Assembly (NCBI GenBank): GCA_038064275.1
Contig: JBBTTL010000005.1
Span: forward strand, 1 to 32,020
Length of the DNA stretch: 32,020 nucleotides
Reading direction: 5' to 3'
Source: Patescibacteria group bacterium
GTDB lineage: Bacteria > Patescibacteriota > Minisyncoccia > Phycocordibacterales > VMEP01
Made by a program: the position numbers and the translations under genes. Position 1 is the stretch's first letter, and every line of letters begins with the position of its first letter. Under the pieces are notes generated by a model, which saw only the letters and a list, made by a program, of their open reading frames with translations, was not told the DNA's origin and ran no database searches. This document shows, piece by piece, positions 3,768-27,478 of the stretch.

Positions 3768-4543
3768 CCAATAAGTATATTATTTATGCCGCGTTTTCTT
3801 TGCTTATCGCTGCATCGCTTTTTTTCGCCGCCAAGATTATCACTGAAATCAAATCATATAGATATATAGGGGGCGGAGTATTGGCAAGCAACGCCATTTC
3901 AGTCAGCGGAGAGGGTGAAGTGTTTGCGGTACCCGACATAGCCACGATAATTTTCTCGGCGGCAAGCCAAGGCAAGACCGTGGCCATGGCGCAGAAAGAA
4001 GCCAGCAAGAAAATTGATGCCGCTCTCGCGTTTTTGAAAAACTCCGGGATTTCCGACAAAGACATAAAAACGACAAACTACAGCGCCCATCCGCGCTATG
4101 AATACAATGAGGTGGTTTGTCTGTCTCTTAATTGTCCGCGTCCTGGCAAGCAAACTCTCGTCGGATATGACGTAATGCAGACTATTTCGGTGAAAGCAAG
4201 GGATACTGATAAGGTGGGCGCTATTCTTGAAGGCTTGGCCAAGGCGGGAATCACTGAAATATCGGGTCCAAATTTCTCAATTGATGACGAGGAAAAACTG
4301 AAAGCCGAAGCGAGGAAATACGCAATCGCCGATGCCAAGGAAAAAGCGGCCGCGCTTGCCGGCGACCTCGGGGTTTCTCTCGTGCGCATTATAAGTTTTT
4401 CCGAGGCGGGAAATTATCCGATTTATTACGCCAAAGCGCTTGAATCAGCCGGCGGAAACGGCGGGGATGTTCTGGCGCCCGAGATTCCGAAAGGGGAGAA
4501 TAAAATCAGCTCCAACGTAACCATTACTTATGAAATCAGGTAA
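3746..4543 (+). CDS. SIMPL/DUF541 family periplasmic protein
   Basis: 265 aa with an N-terminal TM anchor. GYDVMQTISVKARD and EARKYAIADAKEKA..ISSNVTITYEI resemble the SIMPL (26-kDa periplasmic antigen) family. Confidence 0.8.
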   Translation: MEKETLLTNKYIIYAAFSLLIAASLFFAAKIITEIKSYRYIGGGVLASNAISVSGEGEVFAVPDIATIIFSAASQGKTVAMAQKEASKKIDAALAFLKNSGISDKDIKTTNYSAHPRYEYNEVVCLSLNCPRPGKQTLVGYDVMQTISVKARDTDKVGAILEGLAKAGITEISGPNFSIDDEEKLKAEARKYAIADAKEKAAALAGDLGVSLVRIISFSEAGNYPIYYAKALESAGGNGGDVLAPEIPKGENKISSNVTITYEIR

Positions 4544-5836: not shown

Positions 5837-7171
5837 ATGAGCAGAACAAAACAACACGGGAAAAACAAAGGGAAAGGAAAAAAAGGGGACCATGAGGGGC
5901 GGAAAAAACCGGCGGAGGATAAACCGAGGTATCGGAAACCGCCACGCGAGCGTGGTCCAAAACCGGACTACACGCCGAACGGCGTAGCTGTAGCGAAGGA
6001 GTTGATGTTCGTGTACAACACGAGCGCGCGGCAATTGCTCAACGGCACCATGGACAAGGAGAGGTATAAAATCGGCGACGCCGAGTTTGAGAAAGAAATG
6101 GTGCCGCCCTTCAGGGGCGCCCAAGAGAGTGATTTCCGTTGTGCCGTGAGATTCATCGGCGCGCCGGAAGGACACGAACTTCTTCTTTCTGGCGTGCAAC
6201 CGGGGACACACATTCTCGCCAGCACGCTTTCAAAGGAAGATTTCTTCTCCAGGGTGAAGAGCGTTGAGCTCCAAAGGTCGCTCGCCGCGCTTCACAAGTA
6301 CCTCCGAGGGCACTTGGCGGAAGCGAGCAAGGGGAAAGCAAAAGTCGCTAACCCCAAGCCCGTTGCCAACCACAAGGAAACGACCCCTCCTGTCGTATCA
6401 TCCGACCCGAAACTCATCTGGGACGGGAAGGAGGGGCTCGTGGAAATCGGGGGAATACGTTTCCGTGTTTCCACGGAGGAAGTGAAAGGGCACCCTTTCC
6501 GGGCAGCGCGAGTAGATTTTGCGCCGCAGGGAACGGAACTGGCCGACTTGAGCGGGGCAGACACGTATGTGCCGGTGTCAAGGCTTCACCGGCCGGAGTT
6601 TGTATCGCCCCTCCCAAAGGGAAGCAGGGGATGGGAGACACAAAAGCGCATCTGGAAGTTCCTCCGCGGCCAGTTCGCCAAGGCGGGAATTACCGGAGGG
6701 GCGGCGAAAGCCAAACCTGTTTCTGTTGTGGCAAAACCCAAGCCGAAAGCTAAGAATGTGGAAGACCCTTACAAGGGGTCAACCGATATCGGGCAACTCG
6801 TGTCCGGTTTCTATGGGTACTATGTGCTCGGGGAACATGGCGCGCGAGCACTCGTTCGCGTCAGAAGCCACATGAACAGGGAGAAAAGCAGAGAGCGTGT
6901 TGTCGTGGAGCTCGTCAAATGCGAAGCGGGAAATTTCCTCCGCGGGAAATGCGGGGCCAATACCCACATCCCGCACCCGTGGCTCAAGAAGGATCTTGAG
7001 CAGATAGAGATCAAGGATGGGCCCCGTGCTTCCGACATGACAATGCTGTATGTCTATCTGACGGGCGTCATTGACGTTTATCGGAAGGATGTGTATGCGC
7101 ATGTCGCCGCCACCAGAGGCAAAGGGAAACCCGTGGGTGGCATTCACCCAATGCCCGAAGCCATTCAATAA
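5837..7171 (+). CDS. orphan 444-aa basic protein with three internal repeats
   Basis: ATG preceded by AGGAGG (5826-5831), a consensus promoter upstream and a strong terminator downstream. High G+C. No family recognised. Confidence 0.7.
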   Translation: MSRTKQHGKNKGKGKKGDHEGRKKPAEDKPRYRKPPRERGPKPDYTPNGVAVAKELMFVYNTSARQLLNGTMDKERYKIGDAEFEKEMVPPFRGAQESDFRCAVRFIGAPEGHELLLSGVQPGTHILASTLSKEDFFSRVKSVELQRSLAALHKYLRGHLAEASKGKAKVANPKPVANHKETTPPVVSSDPKLIWDGKEGLVEIGGIRFRVSTEEVKGHPFRAARVDFAPQGTELADLSGADTYVPVSRLHRPEFVSPLPKGSRGWETQKRIWKFLRGQFAKAGITGGAAKAKPVSVVAKPKPKAKNVEDPYKGSTDIGQLVSGFYGYYVLGEHGARALVRVRSHMNREKSRERVVVELVKCEAGNFLRGKCGANTHIPHPWLKKDLEQIEIKDGPRASDMTMLYVYLTGVIDVYRKDVYAHVAATRGKGKPVGGIHPMPEAIQ

Positions 7172-8848: not shown

Positions 8849-8876
8849 AACTTACAACTTACAACTGACAACAACG
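8849..8876 (+). repeat. heptamer array directly after the rplK stop
   Basis: aacttac aacttac aactgac aacaacg. Confidence 0.6.
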
Positions 8877-8906
8877 TCAAAACCCCGCCTAGGCGGGGTT
8901 TTGACG
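8875..8906. terminator. 15-bp perfect hairpin after rplK
   Basis: cgtcaaaaccccgcc-ta-ggcggggttttgacg. Confidence 0.6.
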
Positions 8907-8941
8907 TTCGGGGGCTGACTTTTATTTTCTCGAAAATACAT

Positions 8942-12250: not shown

Positions 12251-12286
12251 CACCATTCGCACATTCGTACGAATGTGCGAATGGTG
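12251..12286. repeat. perfect 36-bp palindrome (copy 1 of 3) abutting the ArsR-gene -10 box
   Basis: caccattcgcacattcgt|acgaatgtgcgaatggtg; the two halves are exact reverse complements. Confidence 0.9.
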
Positions 12287-12293
12287 GTAAAAT
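12285..12293 (+). promoter_or_regulatory. extended -10 TGgTAAAAT 6 nt before the ArsR-gene ATG; no SD
   Basis: tggtaaaat-caaaaa-ATG. Overlaps the right end of the palindrome. Confidence 0.45.
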
Positions 12294-12299
12294 CAAAAA

Positions 12300-12566
12300 A
12301 TGAAAGCAAATGAAATGGAATTTAATTTGAAAGCGTTAGCCAACCGACGCAGACTTGCAATTATCACCTTTGTAAAAATTAAAAGAGAAGTAACGGTTGG
12401 GGAAATAGCAGAAGAGATAAAACTCTCGTTCCGCTCAACGTCAAAACATCTCGGGGTCCTCGCCGCGGCTGGTATTTTGGAAAAAGAACAGAGAAGCGCG
12501 CAAGTTTACTATTCTTTAGGCGGGAATCTTTCAGAGCCCGCTCGGCGTATTGTCGCCCTTCTTTAA
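12300..12566 (+). CDS. ArsR/SmtB family winged-helix transcriptional regulator
   Basis: 88 aa. LKALANRRRLAIITFV..EVTVGEIAEEIKLSFRSTSKHLGVLAAAGILEKEQRSAQVYYSL is the ArsR HTH pattern. No obvious metal-ligand Cys motif. Confidence 0.85.
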   Translation: MKANEMEFNLKALANRRRLAIITFVKIKREVTVGEIAEEIKLSFRSTSKHLGVLAAAGILEKEQRSAQVYYSLGGNLSEPARRIVALL

Positions 12567-12620
12567 GAATCCTTGGCTAAGTTTTTATTTATCCGTTCAG
12601 CTTCGTAGTATTACTGTCTG

Positions 12621-12655
12621 ATTTACAATTCGCACATTCGTACGAATGAGCGAAT
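12621..12655. repeat. palindromic repeat, copy 2
   Basis: atttacaattcgcacattcgtacgaatgagcgaat. Identical over 35 nt to copy 3, with one arm mismatch relative to a perfect palindrome. Confidence 0.9.
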
Positions 12656-12714
12656 TGCTTCGCGAAAGTGCGTATGATATATTTTTGAGCAGATAATCCC
12701 CGAAGGAGGATGTC

Positions 12715-13209
12715 ATGTCGAGCAAGAAATGCCGCGTAAAACCGACCGATCTCCAGTGGGACTGCGCGATGCGGGTCCTGAAAAAGGTCCGCCCGCAGCA
12801 GACGCTCCACCTCTGGAACGACCCCGCCATCACCTGCGATATGTTCTTTCGCTTAAGCCGGGAGATTCGCCAGATCACATTAACACCTCAACCAGTCTGT
12901 GGCGATAAAGAGGTACCGGCGACCATAGAACAACGGATTGATGGAACTGGCTTGATTTATTATGTGACCGAAATCAAAGAGGTCTTGCCGTTTGAGGAAC
13001 AAGTGCTTTGTTTTCTCCATGAGCTCGCCCACATCGCCGTTTGGAAAGGAGAGTTTATACTTCCTTCGACGTGGAAAGAAGACGACGTCGAGTGGTTCGT
13101 GGAGCTCCTCGCCGTGCAGTACCTTGAGACCTGCGATTACTATGTATACTCGAGATATCTCCAGTATTTCCCAATCGCGTATACTAAGCATCTGCTCGCC
13201 ACCCTGTGA
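12715..13209 (+). CDS. hypothetical protein with HExxH motif (putative small zinc metallopeptidase-like)
   Basis: 164 aa. AAGGAGG at 12703-12709 lies 5 nt before the ATG. FLHELAHIAVW with acidic residues downstream. Terminator overlaps the stop. Higher G+C than its neighbours. Confidence 0.55.
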   Translation: MSSKKCRVKPTDLQWDCAMRVLKKVRPQQTLHLWNDPAITCDMFFRLSREIRQITLTPQPVCGDKEVPATIEQRIDGTGLIYYVTEIKEVLPFEEQVLCFLHELAHIAVWKGEFILPSTWKEDDVEWFVELLAVQYLETCDYYVYSRYLQYFPIAYTKHLLATL

Positions 13210-13240
13210 GGCTTTGTCTAGCGCCCCACAGGGTGTTTTA
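13200..13240 (+). terminator. intrinsic terminator overlapping the stop of the HExxH ORF
   Basis: caccctgtg-(18 nt)-cacagggtg followed by tttta. Confidence 0.6.
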
Positions 13241-13448
13241 TATGTATAGTATTTCTGTATGATTGAAATCGCTTTTTATTGATCCCTATAAAGGCGTCCA
13301 CGACTTCTATTCCGCAACCCAGCGGTCTTTTCTCAATACACCGCGGAAAGGGGGGTGGAATTTATTAGCAACATACCCATCTCTGCCCGTACGTTAACTC
13401 ACGCAGACATTCCCCGAGGAAACTTTATATATTTTGGTCTATATTAGT

Positions 13449-13483
13449 ATTTACAATTCGCACATTCGTACGAATGAGCGAAT
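13449..13483. repeat. palindromic repeat, copy 3
   Basis: 35/35 identity with 12621-12655. Confidence 0.9.
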
Positions 13484-13545
13484 AGCGGGCGCGAAAAACA
13501 AGCGGGGTGACATCAGGCGAGTGCGAGCGGGTAGATTTGATTTTG

Positions 13546-13554
13546 TGATAAGAT
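13546..13554 (+). promoter_or_regulatory. extended -10 TGaTAAGAT 7 nt before the argS ATG; no SD
   Basis: tgataagat-taaattt-ATG. Confidence 0.45.
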
Positions 13555-13561
13555 TAAATTT

Positions 13562-15139
13562 ATGATTAACCGCTTATTGCGCGAAGAAATAGAGAAAACG
13601 CTCAATGTGATTTTTCCGAGCGTTGAGGCGGAAGGGGTTACTGTTTCATCTTTGCGTCAGTTTGGCGACTATACCACGAACGCGGCTATGGTTGTTTCCG
13701 CCCGCGTTGGAAAGACGGCAAAAGAGACAGCCAAAAGTATCGTAGCCCAACTGGACAAGAGCGAAGAAACAAAAAAACGTATTTTAAAAATGGAAATAGC
13801 CGGCCCTGGCTTTATAAATTTTTTTCTCAAAAACGAAGTAATTGTTTCCGAACTGGAAGAAATTGGCGAGAAAGCAAAAAAAGGTTTTGGTTTTCGCAAA
13901 GGAGAGAAAATAAACATTGAACCGTCATCCGCCAATCCGACTGGCCAGTTTCACATTGGGCACGGCAGGGGGGCATTTTATGGCGATACCCTTGCCAACA
14001 TTCTTGAATTTACAGGCGGCGACTTGACTCGCGAATACTACATCAACGACTCGCGCGAGAGCAACCAAATCAAAGAGCTCGGCAAAACGACACTCGGGCA
14101 GGGAGAAACATATCTTACCGAAAAATTAAAAACGCAAATCGCAAGACTTAAAACAGAATCGCAGGATATAGGCGTTGTCGGGTTTTTACTTGCCCGAATC
14201 GTACAAAGCGATAACCGGGAATTTATAGAAAAAAAACTGGGAATCCGCTTTGATATTTGGTATTCGGAAGACGAAAAATTGCGGGCGACGCTTTTAAACG
14301 ACCGAACGTTAGCGGCGCTTAAAATGAAAGAGCTTGTGTATGAGAAAGACGGCGCAGTATGGCTTAAAACTTCCGAATATGGAGACGATGAGGATAGGGT
14401 AATAATCAGAAGCGACGAATCAAAAACTTATTTTCTCTCCGATATTTCTTATCACGGCGATAAGTTCGCTCGCGGGTACGATGTGGTGATAGATGTTTTT
14501 GGAGCCGACCATCACGGGCACGTCAAAAGAATGATGGCGGCAAAAAAAATGCTCGGCTGGAAAGGCGATCTTAAAATTTTTGTCGCGCAAATGGTTTCTC
14601 TTAAGGAAAATGGCGTTTCGGCAAAAATGTCCAAGCGCGCCGGCAATGTGGTTTTGCTTAAAGATTTGGTGGATGAATTTGGCCTTGACGTGGTGCGTTG
14701 GTTTTATAATGAAAAAGCGCTCTCAACGCAAATGGAGTTTGACATGGCTCTGGCCAAAGAACATTCGGCAAAAAACCCGGTTTTTTACGTACAGTACGCC
14801 CACGCGCGCATGAATTCTATTCTTGAAAAAGCAAAAAGCGTTTCCGGTGATAACGTATCTATTGAGGCGATACTCAAAGAGCCGTCGGCCAAAAACCTGG
14901 CCCTTAAAATTTTGCAATTTGCGGAAGTGTTGGAAGAGATCGCTAATGATTATCAAGCGCACCGGCTGACTACCTACGCCTATGAACTGGCAAGCGCCTT
15001 TTCCGCTTTTTATCGGGACGTGCAGGTGGTGGGCGAAGGGTCGTATAACACCGGCGCCCTGGCCACGATAAATATCACCAAGATAACACTAGCAAAATGC
15101 CTTTCCCTTTTGGGCATATCCGCACCGGAGAAGATGTAA
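13562..15139 (+). CDS. argS: arginine--tRNA ligase
   Basis: 525 aa. ANPTGQFHIGHGR (HIGH), MSKRAG (KMSKS-like), C-terminal anticodon-binding region. Confidence 0.95.
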   Translation: MINRLLREEIEKTLNVIFPSVEAEGVTVSSLRQFGDYTTNAAMVVSARVGKTAKETAKSIVAQLDKSEETKKRILKMEIAGPGFINFFLKNEVIVSELEEIGEKAKKGFGFRKGEKINIEPSSANPTGQFHIGHGRGAFYGDTLANILEFTGGDLTREYYINDSRESNQIKELGKTTLGQGETYLTEKLKTQIARLKTESQDIGVVGFLLARIVQSDNREFIEKKLGIRFDIWYSEDEKLRATLLNDRTLAALKMKELVYEKDGAVWLKTSEYGDDEDRVIIRSDESKTYFLSDISYHGDKFARGYDVVIDVFGADHHGHVKRMMAAKKMLGWKGDLKIFVAQMVSLKENGVSAKMSKRAGNVVLLKDLVDEFGLDVVRWFYNEKALSTQMEFDMALAKEHSAKNPVFYVQYAHARMNSILEKAKSVSGDNVSIEAILKEPSAKNLALKILQFAEVLEEIANDYQAHRLTTYAYELASAFSAFYRDVQVVGEGSYNTGALATINITKITLAKCLSLLGISAPEKM

Positions 15140-15724: not shown

Positions 15725-18700
15725 ATGAATAATCCTCTAGATAACAAAAAGTCTAAAGTGACGGAGAGAGAAGAAGAGGTTCTCAAATATTGGCGGGACA
15801 GGAAAATTTTTGAAAAAACTCTCAACCAAACAAAAAAGGGCAAGCCTTTCGTATTTTACGACGGGCCGCCTTTCGCCACCGGTCTGCCGCATTATGGTCA
15901 CATTCTTACAGGCACCATCAAAGACGTTATTCCGCGATACCAAACGATGCGCGGGCGGTATGTCAGGCGCGAGTGGGGCTGGGACTGTCACGGATTACCG
16001 CTTGAAAATATTATTGAGCAAGAACTTGACCTCAAGCACAAAAAAGACATTGAAGAGTTCGGCGTTGGAAAATTTAATTCTGCCGCGGCAAAAGCAGTTC
16101 TGCGCTACGAAGCCGACTGGAAAGAAACAATTCCCAAAACTGGGCGTTTTGTGGATATGGACAATCCTTACAAGACTATGGATTCCAAATATACCGAATC
16201 GGTCTGGTGGTCTTTCAAAACACTCTACGACAAAAAACTTATTTACGAGGGCTACAAGATAATGTTGATTTGCCCGCGCTGTGAGACATCGCTTGCCCAG
16301 AGCGAGGTTGCGGGAAGCTATCAAGATGTCACGGATATTTCGGTTACCGTGAAATTTGAACTCACTAGTTCGCTCGATACCGATATACCCGCCCGACTTC
16401 GCTTGGACGAAGTCCAGGCGGACGGGCGAATGAACGCGAACGATACGAATAGTACGAATGGAGAAAAAATATTTTTATTGGCATGGACCACGACACCGTG
16501 GACCTTGCCCGGCAACACTGCGATTGCGGTGAATCCTAATATTGAATACGCGCTCATTGAAAGCAAAGAAAACGATGAATCTAAAAATGGCAAATTTATT
16601 GTTGCCAAAGAAAGAATTGAATTTTTGAAGATAAAACACTCCCTAATTAAAACAATAAAAGGGAAAGAATTAGTCGGCAAGACGTATAAACCGCTTTTTG
16701 ATTACTACGCCAAGACCGATATAAAAAATAAAGAGAACGCTCGCCCGACCCGTCCGAACGGATCATCCGGGCGGACTGAACACGACGAGTCGTTCGGGCG
16801 GGGATGGAAGATATACGCCGGAGATTTCGTTACCACCGAGACCGGTACGGGTATTGTGCATATCGCCCCGGCGTTCGGCGAAGACGATATGAATTTGCGC
16901 AACCAGTTCAATCTGCCGTTTATCCAACATGTCGGAATGGACGGCAGAATGAAAGATGAGATGTCCCATTTCCGCGGGCTTTACGTAAAACAAAAAGGCG
17001 ATACCCAATCCACCGACATTGAAATAATAAAACACTTGGCGCGCGAGGGACTGTTGTTCGCCAAAGAAAAAATCGTCCACCCCTATCCGCTCTGCTGGCG
17101 TTGCGACACACCCCTTTTAAATTACGCCACCTCGTCGTGGTTCGTCAAAGTTACGGCCATCAAAAAAAAGCTAATCAAAGAAAATAAAAAAATCACCTGG
17201 GTTCCTTCGCACATAAAAGAAGGGCGTTTCGGCAAGTGGCTCGAAGGTGCCAAAGACTGGGCCATATCGCGAACGCGCTTCTGGGGCGCGCCACTTCCGG
17301 TCTGGCGCTGTGATTCTTGTAAAAAAATAAAAGTAATAGGCGGGCTTAAAGAGCTCAAAGAGGGCAGGTCCGCTAATAATTCTTATATAGCAATGCGCCA
17401 CGGGCAGTCGAAGAGCAATGTCTACGGCGTTAACGATTCTTTCGGAGACCCTGAAAATCATTTGACCGAAAAAGGAAGGGAAGAAGTCGCCTATTCTCTA
17501 AAAGCGCTTTCTAAAAAAGGGATTACGCGCATTGTCTCTTCCCCCCTTATTCGGGCCAAAGAAAGCGCGGAAATTGTGGCGGAAAAATTGGGAATCCCCA
17601 TTGAAAAAATAGAAGTGGATAAAAGATTCATTGAATTTAATCACAGTACCGAATGTCAAGGCAAAAAAGCGGGGTTTCCTGAAACCGACCCGTCGGAAAG
17701 AGAGGATTTTTATCTGCGCCACAAAGACGGAGAGAATCATGACGATGTGCGCGCCCGGGTGATGGAAGGACTATTTGATCTTGAGAAAAAATATAAAGGC
17801 GAAACCATATTGATTGTTACACACGGCTCTCCGATGTGGATGCTTATTTCAGGCGCGGTACACTTAAGCGACAAAGAAACCCTTAAATATCGCGAGGATA
17901 GAAAAAAAGACAAAGGCCCCTATTTCATTTCAAACGCCGAGGTAAAGCCGCTTAACTTTACCTTCTTTCCGCACAACAGTCGCTTCACACTTGATTTTCA
18001 TCGCCCATATATAGACGAAGTTGAGTTTCCTTGTTCTTGTGGCGGCGCCATGGAGCGTATAAAAGACGTGTTTGATTGCTGGTTTGAGTCCGGCTCAATG
18101 CCCTACGGGCAACTTCACTATCCTTTTGAAAATAAGAAATTGTTTAAGGAAAATTTCCCGGCTGATTTTATCGCCGAAGGACTGGACCAGACGCGGGGAT
18201 GGTTTTATAGCATGCTGGTATTAAGCGTGGCACTTTTCGGAAAAACACCTTACCGACGGGTGATTGTGAACGGGCTTATCCTAGCAGAAGACGGCCAGAA
18301 AATATCCAAGCGTCTCAAGAATTATTCGGATGTGGCGGAGGTGATTGAAAAATACGGCGCTGATTCTCTTCGCTATTATCTTTTGTCATCGCCGGTAGTG
18401 CGCGGCGAGGATGTCGCTTTTTCCGAAAAGGGGGTGGCGGAAATCGGGAGAAAAATAATTTCACGGCTGGATAATGTTTATGTTTTTTACGAAACCTACG
18501 CCCATGAATTGAAAAGCGAGAAAAGCGTTGCTAAAACTAAAAATATTTTAGACCAATGGATACTGGCGCGTTTGGGCGAACTTCGTCAGGATATTACTTC
18601 CGGCATGGATAAATATGAACTTGATACAGCCACCCGGGGCATTGATAAGTTTATTGACGATTTATCTACATGGTATTTGCGCCGCTCCCGCGAGCGTTTC

Positions 18701-19369
18701 AAGGGTGACAACAAAGAAGACAAAGAATACGCCCTTTCCACCACCCGCTGTGTTCTTTTTGAATTATCAAAATTGATTGCCCCATTTATGCCATTTATGG
18801 CCGAAGATATTTATCAGAAAGTAAAAGGAGAAAAAAACAAAGAAAGCGTGCACCTTGAGTTGTGGCCGGAAGCGCGGAAGGTTGATAAAAAACTTATAGA
18901 GAAAATGGAAAATACTCGGCATTTAGTTGAACTGGCTCTTGCCGCGCGGGCGGAGAATGGAATCAGGGTTCGTCAACCACTAAGAAGCTTAAAAGTGAAA
19001 AGTGAAAAGTTAAAGGAAGTTTATTCAGAACTCATAAAAGACGAAGTGAATGTTAAAGAGATTATTGGTGGTGTAAATTTAGAAACGGAAGTAGAGTTCG
19101 ATATAACAATTACTCCGGAGCTGAAAAAAGAAGGACAATTGCGCGAACTTATCCGCAATATCCAGGATTTGCGCAAGAAAGAAAAACTGACCCCGCACGA
19201 CATTGCGGTACTTCTTGTCCAAACAAGCGCACACGGAAGAGAATTTATTGGTGAATTTGAGTCGCAATTGAAAAAAGCGACACTCTTGAAGGAAATCAGT
19301 TTTGGGGAAACAGATGGGGGTCCGATTAACATAGACGAATTTTCATTTATACTTAAGCTCGAAAAATAA
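15725..19369 (+). CDS. ileS: isoleucine--tRNA ligase, type 2, with embedded histidine-phosphatase domain and two short inserts
   Basis: 1214 aa. GLPHYGHIL (HIGH), LLAWTTTPWTLPGN and GTGIVHIAPAFGEDD (CP1 editing), DQTRGWFY, GQKISKRLKN (KMSKS). Confidence 0.95.
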   Translation: MNNPLDNKKSKVTEREEEVLKYWRDRKIFEKTLNQTKKGKPFVFYDGPPFATGLPHYGHILTGTIKDVIPRYQTMRGRYVRREWGWDCHGLPLENIIEQELDLKHKKDIEEFGVGKFNSAAAKAVLRYEADWKETIPKTGRFVDMDNPYKTMDSKYTESVWWSFKTLYDKKLIYEGYKIMLICPRCETSLAQSEVAGSYQDVTDISVTVKFELTSSLDTDIPARLRLDEVQADGRMNANDTNSTNGEKIFLLAWTTTPWTLPGNTAIAVNPNIEYALIESKENDESKNGKFIVAKERIEFLKIKHSLIKTIKGKELVGKTYKPLFDYYAKTDIKNKENARPTRPNGSSGRTEHDESFGRGWKIYAGDFVTTETGTGIVHIAPAFGEDDMNLRNQFNLPFIQHVGMDGRMKDEMSHFRGLYVKQKGDTQSTDIEIIKHLAREGLLFAKEKIVHPYPLCWRCDTPLLNYATSSWFVKVTAIKKKLIKENKKITWVPSHIKEGRFGKWLEGAKDWAISRTRFWGAPLPVWRCDSCKKIKVIGGLKELKEGRSANNSYIAMRHGQSKSNVYGVNDSFGDPENHLTEKGREEVAYSLKALSKKGITRIVSSPLIRAKESAEIVAEKLGIPIEKIEVDKRFIEFNHSTECQGKKAGFPETDPSEREDFYLRHKDGENHDDVRARVMEGLFDLEKKYKGETILIVTHGSPMWMLISGAVHLSDKETLKYREDRKKDKGPYFISNAEVKPLNFTFFPHNSRFTLDFHRPYIDEVEFPCSCGGAMERIKDVFDCWFESGSMPYGQLHYPFENKKLFKENFPADFIAEGLDQTRGWFYSMLVLSVALFGKTPYRRVIVNGLILAEDGQKISKRLKNYSDVAEVIEKYGADSLRYYLLSSPVVRGEDVAFSEKGVAEIGRKIISRLDNVYVFYETYAHELKSEKSVAKTKNILDQWILARLGELRQDITSGMDKYELDTATRGIDKFIDDLSTWYLRRSRERFKGDNKEDKEYALSTTRCVLFELSKLIAPFMPFMAEDIYQKVKGEKNKESVHLELWPEARKVDKKLIEKMENTRHLVELALAARAENGIRVRQPLRSLKVKSEKLKEVYSELIKDEVNVKEIIGGVNLETEVEFDITITPELKKEGQLRELIRNIQDLRKKEKLTPHDIAVLLVQTSAHGREFIGEFESQLKKATLLKEISFGETDGGPINIDEFSFILKLEK
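16426..16461 (+). repeat. four in-frame 9-nt ACGAAT-type units inside ileS
   Basis: gcgaatgaa cgcgaacga tacgaatag tacgaatgg, encoding RMN AND TNS TNG. Confidence 0.6.
17372..17989 (+). other. histidine phosphatase superfamily (PGAM-like) domain inserted within ileS
   Basis: YIAMRHGQSKSN, TEKGREEV, IVSSPLIRAKESAEIV, DGENHDDVRARV and ILIVTHGSPM give the R-H-R-E-H catalytic pattern of branch-1 histidine phosphatases. In frame on both sides with IleRS sequence. Confidence 0.8.
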
Positions 19370-24152: not shown

Positions 24153-24185
24153 GCGCCACTTGGAGGTTTCACCTCCAAGTGGCGC
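24153..24185. terminator. 15-bp perfect hairpin after glyQS (no U-tract)
   Basis: gcgccacttggaggt-ttc-acctccaagtggcgc. Confidence 0.55.
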
Positions 24186-27431: not shown

Positions 27432-27478
27432 TTGGAAGCTCTTACTTGGAAGCTCGGCTTCCAAGTAAGAGCTTCCAA
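27432..27478. repeat. perfect 22-bp-arm palindrome between convergent rpsR and efp
   Basis: ttggaagctcttacttggaagc-tcg-gcttccaagtaagagcttccaa. Confidence 0.85.

Follow-up and report, generated by a model that had tools for sequence, protein, structure and literature searches.

A 32,020-nt stretch of a contig from groundwater Patescibacteria of the Hainich wells (hereinafter, the window) contains three copies of a long palindrome distributed around two small genes, one encoding an ArsR-type transcription regulator and the other an orphan protein with an HExxH motif, and the question raised by this locus is what the palindromes are for. The original prediction, made from the sequence alone, offered two alternatives, namely, operators of a small ArsR-controlled regulon that would comprise the regulator gene itself, the HExxH gene and argS, or recombination or insertion sites resembling repetitive extragenic palindromic (REP) elements, which would have captured the HExxH gene as a cassette. 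Here, we compared the locus with its counterparts in genomes and metagenomes and conclude that the three palindromes are probably operators of the adjacent ArsR-type repressor, with the HExxH gene as a passenger inserted between two copies of one of them.

Palindromic sites and their linkage to arsR

Site 1 (12251–12286), which precedes the arsR-like gene, is, as originally described, a perfect 36-bp palindrome (CACCATTCGCACATTCGT|ACGAATGTGCGAATGGTG) with four ATTCG pentamers, and its last two bases (TG, 12285–12286) double as the TG of an extended -10 element; this is the proposed auto-operator of arsR. Sites 2 (12621–12655) and 3 (13449–13483), located between the arsR-like and HExxH genes and before argS, respectively, are 35-nt repeat units, each with a 28-bp palindrome, ATTCGCACATTCGTACGAATGAGCGAAT, that contains one arm mismatch (12628–12655 and 13456–13483). 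The two units are identical across all 35 nt, including the upstream ATTTACA, so that the TTTACA previously thought to precede each copy belongs to the repeat itself, and their likeness extends to ~48 nt at ~92%. They form direct repeats with the predicted 828-bp spacing around the HExxH gene and its terminator, and the gaps separating them from the start codons of the HExxH gene and argS measure 59 and 78 nt, rather than 60 and 79 nt as claimed. No strand is assigned to any of the three sites. A motif search of the whole window returned these 3 sites only, with 0 matches in 100 dinucleotide shuffles; when one mismatch was allowed, a single fourth match appeared, of the kind expected by chance. 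All three sites are kept in each of the 11 same-species contigs or fragments of metagenome-assembled genomes (MAGs) that we recovered (L001–L010 and L076).

The arsR-like gene (12300–12566, plus strand) encodes a minimal winged-helix protein of 88 aa that terminates shortly past the wing. It exceeds the cutoffs of the Pfam families HTH_20 (34.1; cutoff 27) and HTH_5 (24.6; cutoff 22) and of the NCBIfam model NF033788 (57.4; cutoff 55), and its nearest solved structures are Lmo1102, HlyU, BigR and NolR. The non-metal ArsR relatives HlyU, NolR, BigR, SdpR and PagR are matched with E-values of 1e-8 to 1e-6, at scores under the equivalog cutoffs of those families. The site for sensing metals or metalloids, i.e., the alpha3 CxC motif or the alpha5 His/Asp/Glu residues, is missing: the protein contains no Cys, and the ‘CVCD’ of Lmo1102 aligns with ‘TVGE’. 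Thus, it is not a metal sensor and, more generally, is devoid of metal or thiol sensor residues. The sensing-site criterion, in turn, defines only the metal-sensing ArsR members, not the fold family, and, judging by its sequence and operator architecture, the protein is a bona fide ArsR/SmtB family member that does not sense metals. A PADLOC search with this protein produced only generic winged helix-turn-helix (wHTH) matches, of the Csa3/CasR-like kind. The subfamily to which it belongs consists of proteins of 86–97 aa in more than 772 clusters at 90% identity, and those clusters that come with a source name are attributed to Patescibacteria groups or just to ‘bacterium’.

The linkage between arsR and the sites extends far beyond the source species. 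When a collection with a single genome for each species was scanned with the core GCNCATTCGTACGAATGNGC, 16 loci were obtained, 3 of which are GC-rich coding coincidences; most of the others come from MAGs labelled Kerfeld-, Pacei-, Lipton-, Kaiser- or Saccharibacteria or ‘Patescibacteria group’. An arsR homologue adjoins the site in five genome loci (L016, L019, L020, L022 and L023) and in several metagenome loci, the metagenome scan having contributed 51 further loci with the palindrome. In the reverse approach, loci were fetched for eight diverse arsR homologues, and here we encountered loci without the exact core but with 12-2-12 repeats, TTCTCTAATTCG-NN-CGAAT..., on both sides of arsR. With a site defined as ATTCG-N2-CGAAT with at most 1 mismatch (AATTC-N4-GAATT in L087), such sites were found within ~80 nt of arsR in all of the 14 lineages considered first and in all 18 of the extended set, on both sides of the gene in 17, and upstream of it in 17 of the 18. 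In the remaining sequence of the first 14 arsR loci, the motif has a frequency of one per 8 kb, with several of the matches resembling genuine additional sites. On the upstream side of arsR, the right arm runs into, or is replaced by, TGGTAGAAT or TGGTAAAAT, i.e., an extended -10 with a hexamer that ends 6–7 nt before the ATG, and the central dinucleotide of the 12-2-12 lineages (a tetranucleotide in L087) is asymmetric. The asymmetric centre and the use of the right arm as a -10 box together argue that the conserved feature is a double-stranded protein site rather than a hairpin. On the protein side, the recognition helix, S[FL][RK][SA]TSKHL, is nearly invariant where the core of the site is invariant. 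Site 3 is orthologous to the site that other lineages have downstream of arsR, and its flank, CGAATAGCGGG, is common to L080, where it is also found after arsR.

Strict sites are sparse, namely, 3, 2, 1 and 2 on contigs of 165, 325, 404 and 510 kb, respectively, with a density of about one per 50–250 kb. Such low counts place the sites at the scale of a regulon, far below that of REP elements, and contrast with the dozens of copies in unrelated spacers that the original prediction had named as the mark of a generic REP element. By sequence comparison, several Patescibacteria phyla share the conserved core; a search of the IMG/VR viral contigs with the palindrome returned no copies, and a search of Rfam matched no family.

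Among the genes facing a site are argS (three lineages), dut, a peroxiredoxin gene (two lineages), glmS, thrS, lepA, and those for a PIF1-like helicase (two lineages), a beta-CASP nuclease, a glyoxalase, LemA, an ABC transporter and GNATs. The arsR neighbourhoods are rich in deoxynucleoside triphosphate (dNTP), thymidylate and replication genes, such as dcd-dut-glyA in the window and, in other loci, thyA-dcd-folA, holB, MazG/NUDIX, nrdB and priA; we treat this link as a lead, not a result.

Two of the arsR neighbourhoods have peculiarities of their own. Downstream of arsR in L082 (10412–16098), there are three tandem ~600-aa paralogues with an N-terminal zinc ribbon, the first of which lies behind the downstream site of arsR and the second of which has its own ATTCG-NN-CGAAT site and a TAGAAT box; immediately in front of the third gene, we detected no site. 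In L085/L086 (10424–12013), a large serine recombinase gene and a block of unknown genes are located by arsR, next to a tRNA gene, and are missing from the syntenic L080. This island is probably an integrated element that uses the tRNA gene as attB.

Promoter overlap and the inserted HExxH gene

How, then, might the sites act on transcription? The putative extended -10 of arsR, TGgTAAAAT (12285–12293, plus strand; hexamer 12288–12293), was read from the sequence, and the A of the arsR ATG (12300) is the 7th base past the hexamer. The same layout of extended -10 and ATG recurs at arsR in L023, L036, L080, L083, L085, L089 and L090, with the hexamer 7–8 nt before the arsR ATG in the window, L023 and L036, and a strain variant, 12290 A>G, turns the hexamer into TAGAAT, as found in other lineages. 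Given that the extended -10 is so close to the ATG, the arsR mRNA is probably leaderless, with the site covering the promoter. The mRNA of argS (13562–15139, plus strand) appears to be leaderless as well: from a candidate extended -10, TGaTAAGAT (13546–13554, plus strand), likewise read from the sequence, the ATG at 13562 starts 8 nt after the hexamer, and comparable argS boxes are present in L023 and L036. Neither arsR nor argS has a Shine-Dalgarno (SD) sequence; by contrast, the inserted HExxH gene has a strong one, and its candidate extended -10 is TGaTATATT (12675–12683, plus strand; also read by eye). A consensus promoter scan gave nothing beyond shuffle expectation and did not pick up the HExxH candidate, so that the promoters proposed here are based on inspection by eye and on comparison between lineages.

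We propose that the recognition unit is the pentamer ATTCG and that the inverted pair ATTCG-N2-CGAAT takes one dimer; in the window lineage, where a further pentamer is found in each arm, 8 bp outside the first, there may be room for another dimer. On the arsR promoter, with its putative extended -10 and leaderless transcript, site 1 occupies positions from about -13 to -48, and given this overlap we infer that bound ArsR would block RNA polymerase, resulting in autorepression. A second site is always located immediately behind arsR, facing the next transcription unit. The two arsR-flanking sites are spaced by 330–373 bp in six lineages, and looping between them is conceivable, on purely inferential grounds. 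Site 2 would span about -62 to -35 of the candidate HExxH promoter, and its end near -35 probably puts the passenger gene under the same repressor, which makes control of the HExxH gene through site 2 plausible. Site 3 lies ~80–106 nt upstream of the likely argS promoter and start (~50 nt for the equivalent site of L036), and because of this distance direct control of argS by site 3 in the window is uncertain. Thus, of the regulon originally envisaged, comparative genomics strongly supports the identity of the sites as ArsR operators and the autoregulation of arsR, regulation of the HExxH gene is a plausible addition, and that of argS is in doubt.

The HExxH orphan gene (12715–13209, plus strand) encodes a 164-aa predicted minimal zincin with HELAH at residues 102–106. 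In agreement with the original description, it has a strong SD, AAGGAGG, which we read from the sequence at 12703–12709, and its stop codon is followed by a terminator-like hairpin with a T-run (13200–13239, plus strand). The protein matches no family in Pfam, NCBIfam, PHROGs or PADLOC, has no relatives in the IMG/VR viral contigs, and a profile search of PDB sequences found no homologue even at E = 10. Its relatives comprise four clusters from a set of 5.8 billion proteins and a further, 47%-identical protein from 1.8 billion representatives, about 5 in total; HELAH and several acidic residues downstream of it do not vary among the homologues. The homologue in L027, which is 65% identical, sits after a CYTH gene with neither a palindrome nor arsR beside it, and is also followed by a similar hairpin with a T-run, and the DNA likeness between the two is confined to the region from the SD through the stop codon. 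The ratio of nonsynonymous to synonymous substitution rates (dN/dS) relative to this homologue is 0.15, indicating a real gene under long-distance purifying selection.

An AlphaFold2 (AF2) model of the protein, of no more than moderate confidence (pLDDT 70, pTM 0.70), displays a sheet, the HExxH helix and then a Glu-bearing helix. With this model, the top Foldseek match in the PDB is Deinococcus PprI/IrrE (8sln), which is not significant (E = 0.085; template modelling (TM) score 0.30), and the matches in BFVD are small phage peptidases that are IrrE-N-terminal-like and SprT-like (E = 8e-4 to 2e-2; TM 0.34–0.44). A minimal zincin of the SprT/IrrE kind is a reasonable but weak assignment on the basis of this model. 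In a Kaiserbacteria MAG (L022; 597–1004, minus strand), a 135-aa protein of the Zincin_1 family (PF06262, HEIAH) is encoded directly after arsR and its site. We considered the HExxH protein as a divergent Zincin_1 and rejected this candidate, the BLASTP match to the L022 protein being limited to the HExxH pentapeptide.

Compositionally, the HExxH gene is set apart mainly at third codon positions, to which the higher G+C claimed for it is largely restricted: its overall GC is 0.515 and its third-position GC (GC3) is 0.64, compared with 0.39–0.52 for GC3 in arsR, dut, glyA, argS and ileS. The likeness that had been drawn to an island at 5–7 kb is borne out by a 444-aa ORF at 5837–7171 (no Pfam match), which has a GC3 of 0.65 and belongs to the same outlier class. 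In strains L008, L009 and L010, the stretch 12795–13522, i.e., the HExxH gene and its 3′ spacer, differs by ~3% with dN/dS ~1, and arsR and argS are 100% identical to those of the window. This hotspot of single-nucleotide polymorphisms (SNPs), confined to the cassette, suggests allele exchange or relaxed constraint.

Comparison of loci with and without the HExxH gene, as had been proposed, is informative about the origin of sites 2 and 3. In relatives L023 and L036, the order is arsR, site, argS, with nothing in between, argS being the gene that directly follows arsR and its site in relatives, and the HExxH gene is missing from these two and from 15 other arsR loci. Thus, the HExxH gene is an insertion, and sites 2 and 3 are duplicates of the ancestral downstream operator; as far as the sequences tell, the gene is a rare orphan passenger inserted between two copies of one site, with a 35–48 nt operator duplication. 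The gene, equipped with its own SD and terminator, entered behind the downstream site, with ~35–48 nt of the operator duplicated upon insertion, and thereby became bracketed by sites 2 and 3, of which site 3 retains the ancestral place upstream of argS and site 2 is the duplicate. Campbell-type recombination between operator copies is our preferred guess for the mechanism of the duplication. A similar arrangement is seen in L066, where two 95% identical copies of a 126-nt promoter-operator module (1863–1988 and 3799–3924) bracket GNAT and HTH-Fic genes; the module consists of the palindrome, TATAAT and then TGGTATACT located 6–7 nt before the ATG, and it also precedes a second, unrelated GNAT gene. 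Operator copies, therefore, do get moved or copied, and this is the defensible core of the capture alternative.

The gene order around the sites is dut, glyA, arsR-like, HExxH ORF, argS and ileS. The ileS product (15725–19369, 1214 aa) has an inserted His_Phos_1 histidine-phosphatase domain, according to precomputed Pfam matches. Four further long perfect hairpins or palindromes, with stems of 14–22 bp, occupy intergenic positions (1013–1044, 8873–8908, 24153–24185 and 27432–27478) and fall outside the ATTCG family; the one at 8873–8908, which has a GC-rich stem with A and T runs on its flanks, resembles a bidirectional terminator.

Weighing the alternatives

Several observations weigh against reading the palindromes as operators. 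Among 49 unique sites, arm positions 8, 11, 12, 15 and 16 vary yet stay complementary (0.78–0.98 observed vs 0.33–0.52 expected), a weak surplus of symmetry continues to position 18, and two sites of one genome can differ in the outer arm with each still symmetric (L023, L036 and L020). This symmetry of the outer arms counts against operators because recognition by a protein alone does not predict it. Some sites are located between convergent genes (L031, L052 and L075), and others, perfect palindromes of the ATTCG type, lie in frame inside genes, namely, miaA (L054), a mutY-like gene (L044) and folA (L087). Within the window, site 3, ~80–106 nt before the likely argS promoter, is too far away for simple occlusion, and there is no convincing -10 directly following sites 2 or 3. 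For the most part, each arm variant is confined to a lineage, which is what co-evolution of the protein with the two half-sites would produce. Template-switch correction of quasi-palindromes is an established mutational process, and such ‘perfecting’ around a long symmetric core may account for the surplus symmetry of the arms.

The same symmetry is what would be expected if the palindromes functioned as nucleic-acid hairpins, i.e., RNA terminators, processing or stability elements or DNA cruciforms, with the adjacency to arsR being secondary. Indeed, site 1 has a predicted fold of -29 kcal/mol (z = -10.8), the arms covary and are symmetric to ±16–18 bp where the sequence is not conserved, some copies are found between convergent genes, where terminators are expected, and the window has other long perfect terminator-like hairpins. 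However, as already stated in the original prediction, none of the three copies in the window is followed by a T-run (a U-tract in the RNA); the predicted folds of sites 2 and 3 are weak (-13 to -16 kcal/mol, z = -1.9 to -3.3); and many lineages keep just the 5-bp inverted pair, with an asymmetric 2–4 nt centre and the right arm serving as the -10 box, so that no useful hairpin is left. Furthermore, the centre of the palindrome is self-complementary, a property that a symmetric dimer needs but a hairpin loop does not, no Rfam family matches, and the extended symmetry could, under the template-switch scenario, arise unselected. Thus, we consider a hairpin function unlikely. Mobility presents a different case, with the palindromes as REP-like sites, miniature inverted-repeat transposable elements (MITEs) or att-like recombination sites that capture cassettes, the HExxH gene being one of these. 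The direct repeats that bracket this accessory gene at a spacing of 828 bp, the duplicated module of L066 around the GNAT and HTH-Fic genes, the distinct composition of the HExxH cassette, and its status as a SNP hotspot among strains with identical flanks all point this way, as do the in-frame copies in folA (about 3601 in L087, inside a ~22-aa insertion relative to solved dihydrofolate reductases) and in the mutY-like gene (centre 137 in L044, with 4 extra aa). Against mobility stand the regulon-like copy number, the conservation of the core across phyla, unlike in species-specific REPs, and the fact that no REP-associated tyrosine transposase (RAYT), other transposase or integrase is encoded nearby in the window gene list. 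Moreover, the serine recombinase of L085 adjoins a tRNA gene, the more usual attB; the in-frame copy in miaA (centre 847 in L054) entails no length change compared with solved MiaA structures; the L027 homologue of the HExxH gene has no palindrome; and viral contigs contain no copies. The balance makes mobile or recombination sites an improbable explanation overall, so that of the second original alternative only the insertion of the HExxH gene with duplication of a site is retained, the REP part being contradicted by the low copy number, the cross-phylum core and the lack of a transposase.

A further possibility, which concerns the two proteins rather than the sites, is that ArsR and the HExxH protein form a pair similar to ImmR/ImmA or DdrO/IrrE, in which the zincin would cleave the sensor-less repressor and thereby induce the regulon. 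Such a pair would suit a repressor that has no ligand or metal site; the order of the genes, repressor and then small HExxH protein, is that of immR-immA; PprI/IrrE is the best fold match in the PDB, and IrrE-N-terminal-like and SprT-like proteins are the best viral ones; and, in L022, an unrelated small zincin (PF06262, HEIAH) is encoded directly behind arsR and its site. The fold matches are weak, however (E = 0.085 and TM 0.30 in the PDB; E ≥ 8e-4 and TM ≤ 0.44 for the viral proteins), the HExxH protein matches neither Peptidase_M78 nor any other Pfam family, the repressor is of the ArsR rather than the XRE type, and most arsR loci lack the HExxH gene, with a zincin neighbour in just 2 of 18, those two zincins being unrelated to each other. 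Accordingly, the ImmA/IrrE-type peptidase originally suggested survives only as a weak likeness at the fold level, with no M78 domain match and a pairing that is not conserved, and we regard a repressor-protease pair as very unlikely. The same low probability attaches to a more sweeping scenario, in which the sensor-less ArsR would be the master regulator of a Patescibacteria-wide DNA-precursor and replication regulon, relieved by proteolysis from a co-regulated small zincin (the ImmR/ImmA or DdrO/IrrE logic on a winged-helix scaffold), and the operator modules would double as recombination handles for accessory cassettes, such as HExxH and GNAT/Fic. The intragenic copies and those between convergent genes also prompted the idea of a chromosome-organising site similar to parS or those of Noc or MatP, which is only remotely possible.

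Other candidates were rejected outright: a REP-like element on account of the copy number (3 in 32 kb, all at arsR) and cross-phylum conservation; phage origin, given that both the palindrome and relatives of the HExxH protein are absent from IMG/VR; a defence system, PADLOC having returned nothing for the HExxH protein and generic wHTH matches for ArsR; and a DNA-uptake sequence, which is ruled out by the copy number. Reading the 28-mer as a dif/XerCD site (11-6-11) is contradicted by its multiple copies, palindromic centre and linkage to arsR. An integron attC-type site is at odds with the lack of a recombinase in the window and with the conserved centre and variable outer arms, which are the opposite of attC. 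The palindrome as the attB of the L085/L086 serine-recombinase island was discounted because a tRNA gene is found at the junction. The operators of an ArsR-type repressor thus remain the interpretation that we favour.

Significance and relation to known systems

To our knowledge, gene regulation in Patescibacteria, also known as the candidate phyla radiation (CPR), is almost unexplored; the genomes of these bacteria encode very few transcription factors, and in the searchable literature on the palindrome motif, on Patescibacteria (CPR) ArsR and on the regulon, we found no relevant paper. A repressor with an operator that can be recognised in several CPR phyla would supply a motif with which regulons could be predicted in thousands of MAGs. 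It also offers a promoter architecture (extended -10, leaderless) and a protein/DNA pair that can be tested in vitro, with no need to cultivate the organism. The HExxH gene by itself is ordinary, an orphan passenger, and shows how new genes may join an existing regulon through operator duplication.

Among known palindromic repeats, the sites share with REP elements and bacterial interspersed mosaic elements (BIMEs) and with Rickettsia palindromic elements a mostly intergenic location and occasional in-frame copies. REP/BIME elements, however, come in tens to hundreds of copies per genome, have a cognate Y1 transposase (RAYT) and are species-specific in sequence, whereas the sites described here are present in few copies per genome, are conserved across phyla and are tied to a transcription factor gene instead of a RAYT transposase. 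The ImmR/ImmA and DdrO/IrrE systems likewise consist of a repressor gene followed by one for a small HExxH protein, to which the protein in the window bears a weak IrrE/SprT-like fold likeness, but here the repressor is ArsR-type, not XRE-type, there is no M78/DUF955 match, and the pairing is not conserved.

Within its own family, the regulator is comparable to the SmtB, CzrA and CadC autorepressors, which are small dimeric winged-helix proteins with an inverted repeat over their own promoter; in the sister lineages of the window, this repeat is literally 12-2-12. Unlike these proteins, the patescibacterial ArsR lacks Cys as well as the alpha3 and alpha5 metal sites, and its putative operators are found on both sides of the gene, with extra sites scattered at housekeeping genes and, in the window lineage, with doubled arms, so that four pentamers are contained in a 28–36 bp palindrome. 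HlyU, NolR, BigR, SdpR and PagR, which are among the nearest solved or curated relatives, similarly regulate without metals. HlyU and BigR rely on paired Cys residues, and SdpI sequesters SdpR; neither Cys pairs nor an SdpI-like partner is present here. Finally, HrcA and its CIRCE operator, which has a 9-N9-9 layout and could also act as an mRNA hairpin, involve an unrelated protein family and a chaperone regulon, which is not the set of genes seen here, but display the same pattern of evolution, namely, a palindromic operator that is kept nearly unchanged across distant lineages together with its repressor, in few copies per genome.

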